From Escherichia coli (GTDB taxonomy: Bacteria; Pseudomonadota; Gammaproteobacteria; Enterobacterales; Enterobacteriaceae): a stretch of DNA of 64,000 nt. The DNA lies in the NCBI RefSeq assembly GCF_045037415.1, contig NZ_CP173438.1; one strand, written 5' to 3'. The stretch's first letter is position 1; each line of letters starts with the position of its first letter. Shown one piece after another: positions 12,701 through 15,700 of this stretch. The position numbers were made by a program.

Positions 12701-15700
12701 TTGCCCGAAATCCAGCGTTTGTTACCCAACAAACCGGTTGAAGTAATTGACTCGCTGCTTTATGGCAAAGTCGATGGTTTAGGCGTGCTTAAGGCTGCGG
12801 TTGCAGCGATTAAAAAAGCCGCAGCAAATTAATTTATTTTAAATTTTCCCGTCAAAGAGTTATTTCATAAATCAATACCGCAATATTTAAATTGCGGTTT
12901 TTAAGGGTATTTTTCTATGAGTAATGTTATTGCATCGCTTGAAAAGGTACTCCTCCCTTTTGCAGTTAAAATAGGAAAGCAGCCACACGTTAATGCAATC
13001 AAAAATGGCTTTATTCGCTTAATGCCGTTAACCCTTGCGGGGCCATGTTTGTATTAATTAACAACGTTTTTCTAAGCTTTGGGGAGGGGTCGTTTTTTTA
13101 TTCCTTAGGTATTCGCCTGGATGCCTCAACCATTGAAACACTTAATGGTCTGAAAGGTATTGGCGGCAACGTATATAACGGAACATTAGGGATAATGTCT
13201 TTAATGGCACCGTTCTTTATTGGCATGGCGCTGGCAGAAGAGCGTAAAGTCGATGCGCTGGCGGCCGGGTTGTTATCCGTTGCAGCATTTATGACCGTCA
13301 CCCCATATAGTGTCGGTGAGGCCTATGCGGTTGGCGCAAACTGGTTAGGTGGGGCGAATATCATCTCCGGGATTATTATTGGCCTGGTGGTGGCAGAAAT
13401 GTTTACCTTTATTGTTCATCGTAACTGGGTCATTAAGTTACCTGATAGCGTTCCGACATCGGTTTCGCGCTCTTTCTCAGCATTAATTCCTGGTTTTATT
13501 ATTCTTTCCGTGATGGGGATTATTGCCTGGGCGTTGAATACCTGGGGCACCAACTTCCATCAGATCATTATGGATACGATCTCAACCCCACTGGCATCGT
13601 TGGGTAGCGTGGTAGGCTGGGCCTATGTGATCTTTGTTCCACTGCTCTGGTTCTTCGGTATTCATGGCGCGCTGGCGCTGACCGCACTGGACAACGGCAT
13701 TATGACGCCTTGGGCGCTGGAAAATATCGCGACCTATCAGCAATATGGTTCCGTCGAAGCGGCGCTGGCAGCCGGTAAGACCTTCCATATCTGGGCCAAG
13801 CCGATGCTGGACTCCTTTATTTTCCTTGGTGGCAGTGGTGCGACTTTAGGCCTGATCCTGGCTATCTTTATCGCCTCTCGACGTGCTGATTATCGTCAGG
13901 TGGCAAAACTGGCGCTGCCGTCTGGCATCTTCCAGATTAACGAACCGATTCTGTTTGGTCTGCCAATTATCATGAACCCGGTGATGTTTATCCCGTTTGT
14001 ACTGGTACAACCGATTCTGGCGGCAATCACCCTGGCAGCGTACTACATGGGCATTATTCCACCGGTGACCAATATTGCACCGTGGACCATGCCAACCGGT
14101 CTGGGAGCCTTCTTTAACACCAACGGTAGCGTCGCCGCATTGCTGGTCGCACTCTTCAACCTTGGTATCGCAACGTTAATTTATCTGCCCTTTGTTGTGG
14201 TCGCTAACAAAGCACAAAACGCGATTGATAAAGAAGAGAGCGAAGAAGATATCGCTAACGCCCTGAAATTTTAATCGATGCCGGTACGGGTAATCGTGCC
14301 GGTAAGAATAGAGAGGAACGATGTATGATGGATCTCGATAATATTCCCGATACGCAAACGGAAGCTGAAGAGCTGGAAGAAGTGGTGATGGGGCTTATCA
14401 TCAACTCCGGACAAGCGCGTAGCCTGGCGTATGCGGCACTGAAACAGGCGAAGCAGGGCGATTTTGCCGCAGCAAAAGCGATGATGGATCAGTCACGGAT
14501 GGCATTGAATGAAGCGCATCTGGTACAGACGAAACTGATTGAAGGCGATGCTGGCGAAGGTAAGATGAAAGTGAGTCTGGTGCTGGTCCACGCTCAGGAT
14601 CATTTAATGACGTCCATGCTTGCGCGTGAACTGATTACTGAATTAATTGAGCTTCATGAAAAACTGAAGGCATAAGGAGTCGATGATGCAGCCAGTGATT
14701 AACGCGCCGGAAATTGCCACTGCCCGAGAACAGCAGTTGTTTAATGGCAAAAACTTCCATGTGTTTATCTATAATAAAACTGAGAGTATCAGCGGACTGC
14801 ATCAGCACGACTATTATGAATTTACTCTGGTATTAACCGGGCGTTATTTCCAGGAGATTAACGGTAAGCGCGTGTTACTGGAACGGGGCGATTTTGTTTT
14901 TATTCCGTTAGGTTCGCACCATCAAAGTTTTTATGAGTTTGGTGCCACGCGTATATTGAACGTTGGGATCAGTAAACGCTTTTTTGAGCAGCATTACCTG
15001 CCGTTGTTGCCTTATTGCTTTGTAGCTTCGCAGGTATACCGGACCAATAACGCTTTTCTCACCTATGTGGAAACAGTGATTTCTTCATTGAATTTCCGCG
15101 AAACAGGGCTGGAAGAGTTTGTTGAGATGGTTACTTTTTATGTCATTAACCGTTTACGTCATTACCGCGAAGAACAGGTGATTGATGATATACCGCAGTG
15201 GCTGAAAAGTACGGTAGAAAAAATGCATGATAAAGAGCAGTTTAGTGAATCGGCGCTGGAGAATATGGTGACGTTGTCAGCCAAATCACAGGAATATTTG
15301 ACGCGAGCGACTCAACGATATTATGGTAAAACGCCAATGCAGATTATTAATGAAATCCGTATTAATTTTGCCAAAAAACAACTGGAAATGACCAACTATT
15401 CAGTGACGGATATTGCGTTTGAGGCCGGTTATAGTAGCCCGAGCTTGTTTATTAAAACGTTTAAGAAATTAACGTCCTTTACGCCTAAGAGCTATCGTAA
15501 GAAATTGACTGAATTTAATCAGTAAGTCGTTATACCTGACAATTCACATATCTGTCCTGTTGCTGGATTATTTATGTCCGGGGGCAGATATGCCAGATAT
15601 CAGTATTCTGTACTGAAGGGAGAAATTATGAGCCAGAAATTAAAAGTCGTCACTATTGGTGGCGGGAGCAGCTATACCCCGGAGTTACTGGAAGGATTTA

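Follow-up and report, generated by a model that had tools for sequence, protein, structure and literature searches.

The stretch of DNA analysed here (the window) is 64,000 nucleotides (nt) long and comes from Escherichia coli (NCBI RefSeq assembly GCF_045037415.1, contig NZ_CP173438.1; one strand, 5' to 3'). It contains the chbBCARFG operon, formerly called cel, and our subject is its second gene, chbC, which encodes the enzyme IIC (EIIC) permease of the phosphotransferase system (PTS) for N,N'-diacetylchitobiose. In the window, chbC is interrupted by the loss of one base from a short run of G. The features of the gene are as follows, where ORF stands for open reading frame, aa for amino acids, PGAP for the Prokaryotic Genome Annotation Pipeline, and the profile is NCBIfam NF007634:

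12917..14274, + strand: chbC pseudogene (PTS N,N'-diacetylchitobiose EIIC), 1358 nt, frameshifted; PGAP gives the same label to the identical sequence of strain THO-003
13039..13042, + strand: GGGG run, where one base has been deleted (GGGGG in the ancestor), from the sequence position and the comparison with strain S103EC
12917..13057, + strand: 5' fragment ORF of chbC, 42 native codons followed by 4 out-of-frame codons and TAA; profile positions 1-43
13045..14274, + strand: 3' fragment ORF of chbC, 409 aa, native frame downstream of the deletion, first codon Met44 of the intact protein; profile positions 44-452
13093..13099, + strand: T7 run in chbC, intact in the window; site of a deletion to T6 in other lineages

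The length of the gene, 1358 nt, is not divisible by 3. Frame 1 holds 42 native codons (MSNV...LTLAG), runs out of frame through PCLY and ends at the TAA at 13055..13057, while a second ORF of 409 aa opens with the ATG at 13045 and closes at 14274. With the motif GCGGGGCC beginning at 13037, the G run is GGGG at 13039..13042. When one G was inserted into the run, a single ORF of 452 aa was obtained, and its product matched NF007634, the ChbC equivalog profile, from end to end (1-452/452) at 970.7 bits, above the curated cut-off of 760. An initial reading of the window (the sequence-only reading) had described this two-frame layout and the effect of adding a G, and it was right on both. The fragments as encoded divide the profile between positions 1-43 and 44-452, and the 409-aa product alone scores 876.6 bits, also above the cut-off. 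Repaired ChbC aligns with the structure of Bacillus cereus ChbC (3QNQ) over residues 5-442 (E = 9e-58). A Kyte-Doolittle scan centred its first hydrophobic segment on residues 44-47, and the break is thus placed within the first predicted transmembrane helix.

Locus, gene order (chbB-chbC-chbA-chbR-chbF-chbG) and sequence are those of the ChbC permease gene in the E. coli chb operon. The difference from intact E. coli ChbC is that a missing base breaks the reading frame at codon 43 and no single ORF spans the whole permease. Judged by its sequence, chbC in the window is a pseudogene of the ChbC family and not a functional member as encoded.

The window corresponds to positions 2378753-2442752 of THO-003 (NZ_AP022525.1), from which it differs by one single-nucleotide polymorphism (SNP) at 7175 and by no insertions or deletions (indels). 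S103EC encodes an intact ChbC (WP_000073030.1), and it is placed in clade C0 of sequence type 131 (ST131) by PMC10591226 (Table S1). Compared with positions 1..34274 of the window, S103EC showed only the SNP at 7175 and an additional G in the chbC run (GGGGG), with no other indels. Since S103EC is near-identical over 34 kb and yet carries five G's, the four-G state is derived and very recent. Over the same 34 kb, no clade-marker SNP by which the deletion might be dated was found near chbC, the extra G and the private SNP being the only differences. This SNP falls in codon 435 of astB, where the window has T (TTG, Leu) and both THO-003 and S103EC have C (TCG, Ser). The change is non-synonymous and private to the strain, and the isolate could be recognised by it. 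The ranking of the 5,409 matches to the repaired five-G chbC was sampled evenly: identity stayed at 100 % until about rank 460 and stood at 99.8 % near rank 551, and roughly 460-550 complete genomes carry the exact repaired haplotype. The nearest outgroups, S103EC and this larger group, thus hold the intact allele, as would be expected for a lineage-fixed pseudogene.

To survey the species we used a comparison set of 5,426 complete E. coli genomes and a 34-nt query that only the four-G allele can match. The allele was found in 72 genomes, and about 98.7 % of the set carries five G's with chbC in a single frame; this is the outcome of the alignment with other E. coli that the sequence-only reading had proposed. 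An 86-nt query across the site matched 73 genomes at 100 % identity and 5,321 at 95-99 %, a band that takes in the five-G allele because a single gap amounts to 98.8 % on a query of this length. Five of the four-G genomes have non-ST131 backgrounds and the other 67 appear to be ST131. Most are human isolates with genomes of 5.1-5.4 Mb, and several are named O25b:H4-ST131. At least the 30 best matches were 100 % identical to the window across the whole 1358-nt chbC, and every four-G record that we inspected bears the PGAP label 'frameshifted' on this gene. According to their records, four-G strains 21366 and OY019088 originated in Germany and Armenia, respectively.

PMC10591226 sorts 86 complete ST131 genomes and defines a sublineage, C2b, which its authors identify with L1a of Biggel et al. 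2022. C2b is marked there by virotype E/papGII+, by an island like PAI II536 that bears hly/cnf1, and by a chromosomal transposon, TnMB1860, with blaCTX-M-15. All seven C2b genomes of Table S1 that are in RefSeq (THO-003, p4A, p11A, Ecol_AZ146, FDAARGOS_1265, SCAID WND1-2021, and TO217) are among the 72 four-G genomes; of those that part 1 of the table assigns to clades A, B, C0, C1, C2 and C2a, not one is. The table records Ecol_AZ146 from Italy in 2012, p4A and p11A from the USA in 2015, THO-003 from Japan in 2018, and SCAID WND1-2021 from Kazakhstan in 2021.

As a second marker for the clade, we used 34-mers across each chromosome/IS26 junction of TnMB1860 in THO-003. The transposon lies there at 1811089-1824040, bounded by IS26, inside the DUF4132/WGR genes adjoining metG. 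Its cargo in THO-003 consists of blaCTX-M-15, aac(6')-Ib-cr, blaOXA-1, a truncated catB3, and aac(3)-IIe. The left-junction 34-mer was found in 44 genomes and the right in 45, for a union of 52; the left one was also found on plasmids of p11A and p11B. Fifty-one of the 52 junction-positive genomes are four-G (Fisher's exact test against the rest of the collection, p = 3e-105), 49 of them among the listed four-G records and two, OY019088 and CM190148, confirmed by direct inspection. Together with the seven C2b genomes of Table S1, these data show the same disabling allele in nearly all members of the clade. On the other hand, about 16 four-G genomes have neither junction. One of them, strain 1446, has an intact, unoccupied DUF4132 target gene (WP_000860751.1), and the chbC deletion is therefore older than the TnMB1860 insertion. 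The four-G clade is thus somewhat wider than the TnMB1860-bearing L1a/C2b group.

A control for homopolymer miscalls was taken from the same window. The essential or housekeeping genes thrS, infC, rplT, pheS, pheT, and nadE of the window (29431..36444 and 10846..11673) contain no G/C run of 5 or more, so we chose the G5 run of ppsA at 44962..44966, whose flanks are conserved species-wide. This run reads G5 in 5,406 genomes and G4 in 8 of about 5,414, or about 0.15 %, which sets the background rate in the collection for miscalled homopolymers or infrequent genuine frameshifts. The eight are unrelated strains grouped by sequencing project (CP1272xx-CP1273xx and CP1465xx), the signature of a batch error. 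The window as a whole holds 31 G/C runs of at least 5 nt, including a C7 in ydiK at 62527 and several G6/C6.

The five four-G genomes outside ST131 (N3, A24, SCU-104, LZHX12, and AST198) occur at a frequency on par with this control. SCU-104, LZHX12, and AST198, which stem from three projects, have identical chbC genes and 10-kb loci that differ by 4-6 nt; from these sequences the group looks like a second genuine origin of the allele. The singletons N3, which has a frameshifted astE next to chbC, and A24 may be errors. We had considered four or more independent origins, and this was softened to two well-supported ones on account of the two singletons, which stand at the control frequency.

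The sole exception among the 52 junction-positive genomes is FCI29 (NZ_CM172720.1), which carries TnMB1860 and reads G5, with an 'intact' chbC. Aligned with the window over 55 kb, it shows 17 indel events (33 gap columns) and a single mismatch; the indels are mostly in homopolymers and include three extra G's in a G5 run at 15580. Because indel events outnumber mismatches in this way, the G5 call of FCI29 is unreliable. It had been entertained as a revertant, a candidate that was downgraded on the same counts.

These data bear on what the two-frame layout means, for which the sequence-only reading had left two options: a homopolymer sequencing or assembly error, or a genuine loss-of-function allele, the latter through phase variation or early pseudogenisation. 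An error, with five G's and an intact chbC in the true genome, would have precedents in the scattered, project-clustered G4 reads of ppsA, in the noise level that FCI29 reveals for some assemblies, and in the 454 homopolymer error reported for chbC of K-12 derivatives (PMC3045373). The last of these shows that the sequence-only reading had good reason for caution, yet an error does not account for the present case: the four-G reading follows one sublineage through nearly all its junction-positive genomes and through dozens of independent assemblies from many projects, countries, and years, several hundred other genomes that share this chbC haplotype have G5, and the window is free of other indels over 64 kb against THO-003 and over its first 34 kb against S103EC. 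We therefore regard an error as very improbable. The stability of the allele across the clade speaks against phase variation, in which the run would act as a contingency tract and chbC would be turned on and off at high frequency by reversible changes in its length. Such loci resemble chbC in that the length of a mononucleotide run sets the reading frame, the mutation does fall in a homopolymer, the change from G5 to G4 recurs in N3, A24, and the SCU-104/LZHX12/AST198 group, and one member of the sublineage, FCI29, reads G5. Known contingency tracts, however, are far longer than 4-5 nt, typically 7 nt or more, whereas chbC has four G's here and five in the ancestor. Neither are the two lengths interspersed among close relatives with gains and losses, as in a switch: the state is clonally stable in the clade and in about 5,300 five-G genomes, insertion alleles are lacking (a six-G allele occurs in none of the 5,426 complete genomes), the scattered non-ST131 cases are no commoner than the ppsA control, and the FCI29 assembly is noisy in indels. 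A phase-variable chbC is thus highly unlikely, and it is the genuine loss-of-function allele, in early pseudogenisation, that the clade-wide four-G state and the intact remainder of the operon favor, although the functional loss is itself deduced from the sequence.

Two further explanations would leave the allele functional. Programmed recoding, in which chbC would normally be expressed by +1 ribosomal frameshifting or by transcriptional slippage, has the two-frame layout in its favor and nothing more. It is exceedingly improbable, as this layout is not conserved among orthologues, chbC being single-frame in nearly all genomes, and the four-G allele is derived within ST131 and offers no long slippery tract. 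A split but functional gene is the other possibility, with re-initiation at ATG 13045 and a 409-aa product that still transports chitobiose. The native Met44 codon does lie 10 nt upstream of the stop with GGGG before it, and the product scores above the ChbC model cut-off. It would, however, be without its N-terminal 43 residues and half of the first hydrophobic helix, which would probably disturb membrane insertion or topology, and the 2-nt spacing from GGGG to ATG would make a poor Shine-Dalgarno site. Other operon genes are also damaged in some four-G strains (chbR in OY019088 and SCU-104), which fits an operon freed from selection. A functional permease from this ORF is accordingly unlikely on sequence grounds, and we give the idea little credence.

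The reading that we prefer, and hold with high confidence, is that chbC is a real, recent, lineage-fixed pseudogene created by the loss of one G in the ancestor of an ST131-C2 sublineage and inherited vertically. The window belongs to the papGII+ 'L1 / C2b' sublineage of E. coli ST131 clade C2. A G was lost from the G5 run at codons 41-43 in an ancestor of this sublineage, presumably by replication slippage, and the deletion was then passed on vertically. Translation would end 46 codons in, midway along the permease's first transmembrane helix. Uptake and phosphorylation of N,N'-diacetylchitobiose by the Chb PTS would most likely be lost, and expression of chbARFG might be lowered through polarity. 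The case resembles the lineage-fixed pseudogenes of pathogenic E. coli and Shigella clones, which likewise show a single slippage-type indel in a recently expanded clone with intact outgroups and undecayed neighbors; it differs from reductive evolution in these clones in that one gene is affected rather than the genome at large.

Several points weigh against this reading. The deletion, its ancestral state, its distribution over the clade, and its stability are matters of direct observation, whereas the loss of chitobiose transport in four-G strains, most likely as it is, is deduced from the gene. ATG 13045 is in the native frame 10 nt before the premature stop, and some re-initiation, giving a product that lacks residues 1-43, is possible. 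The monophyly of the four-G genomes rests on the published classification and the transposon junction marker, not on a genome-wide phylogeny, and among the roughly 16 junction-negative four-G genomes ST131 membership was checked in detail only for strain 1446. FCI29, finally, could be a true revertant and not an error.

The remainder of the operon in the window is as follows:

12512..12832, + strand: chbB (EIIB), intact
14325..14675, + strand: chbA (EIIA), intact
14683..15525, + strand: chbR (AraC-type regulator), intact
15628..16980, + strand: chbF/celF (6-phospho-beta-glucosidase), intact
16993..17751, + strand: chbG (chitin disaccharide deacetylase), intact

That the other chb genes are intact had been stated in the sequence-only reading, and all five indeed have the same sequence as in S103EC, an ST131 genome with an unbroken chbC. 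The RefSeq/PGAP annotation of THO-003 agrees, with chbC a 'frameshifted' pseudogene and chbB, chbA, chbR, celF (chbF), and chbG intact. We attribute the integrity of these five genes to the recency of the chbC event. Two other four-G strains show damage to chbR. In OY019088 (ST131), an A-to-T substitution at the equivalent of window position 15525 abolishes the chbR stop codon, and PGAP marks the gene incomplete; SCU-104 (non-ST131) has an internal stop in chbR. These cases represent further decay of the operon after the loss of chbC, and they fit relaxed selection. The mechanically called ORF of chbF/celF, 15574..16980 (468 aa), starts 54 nt upstream of the annotated start at 15628 (450 aa), and the G5 run at 15580 falls in this upstream extension or in the intergenic stretch.

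chbC has been disabled elsewhere in the species by other routes. A one-base deletion that shortens the T7 run to T6, about 55 nt downstream of the G run, was present in 31 genomes, mostly Shiga toxin-producing E. coli (STEC) O145:H28 from several laboratories. Other listed T6 genomes include the avian pathogenic E. coli (APEC) strain IMT5155 as well as ACN001, PD7, and MB56. PGAP marks the T6 chbC as 'frameshifted' in RM13516 and IMT5155, and a T8 allele was found in no genome of the collection. The O145:H28 mutation is again a one-base homopolymer deletion in the same gene; compared with the four-G allele of the window, it lies in a different run and a different lineage and is an independent event. 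It is apparently a lineage-fixed pseudogene in another pathogenic clone, and at least two successful pathogenic lineages have thus inactivated chbC separately. AVS0969 (NZ_CP124475.1, 2399724-2401858) offers a third independent route of inactivation: its chbC has the window haplotype with five G's and is split by the insertion sequence IS1.

It could be speculated that the loss of chbC is adaptive rather than neutral, given the convergent knockouts in ST131-C2 L1/C2b and STEC O145:H28 and the IS1 hit in single strains, and we consider this doubtful. If it were so, the gain might lie in shedding a costly or vulnerable inner-membrane transporter, or in altering the circuit of chbBC messenger RNA, the small RNA (sRNA) ChiX, and chitoporin, and the ST131 allele would be part of what sets an emerging virulent sublineage apart. 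The four-G allele and the independent T6 allele of O145:H28 suggest that some host-associated niches allow E. coli to do without chbC, or select against it.

The four-G chbC is an ordinary pseudogene of a well-characterised gene, already flagged 'frameshifted' in RefSeq, and not a new kind of system. Searches of the literature for chbC with ST131, chitobiose with ST131, and chitobiose with O145 returned nothing relevant, and neither four-G chbC as a marker of ST131 L1/C2b nor T6 in O145:H28 was found in the searchable literature; Biggel 2022 (PMC9334617) makes no mention of chb, frameshifts, or pseudogenes. The allele provides a clean single-base typing marker for a globally spread, virulent, multidrug-resistant ST131-C2 sublineage, one that arose before the lineage gained chromosomal TnMB1860 with blaCTX-M-15 and that predicts the absence of chitobiose uptake by the Chb PTS. 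The case also illustrates that lineage-fixed homopolymer frameshifts can be separated from assembly errors by how they are distributed over independent assemblies and by comparison with a control run, for example the G5 of ppsA.

Elsewhere in the window, four RNA features matched Rfam models at the gathering threshold, all of them expected for the region:

10724..10766, - strand: ES036 (CssrF)
32725..32849, + strand: Phe leader
36690..36848, + strand: STnc540
61526..61633, - strand: RprA sRNA

A gene for a type III effector toxin of the ShET2/EspL2 family occupies 27883..28907 on the minus strand and is a pseudogene in THO-003 (frameshifted, with an internal stop). It is degraded in S103EC, FCI29, and OY019088 as well, and its decay is therefore older and common to ST131 clade C.

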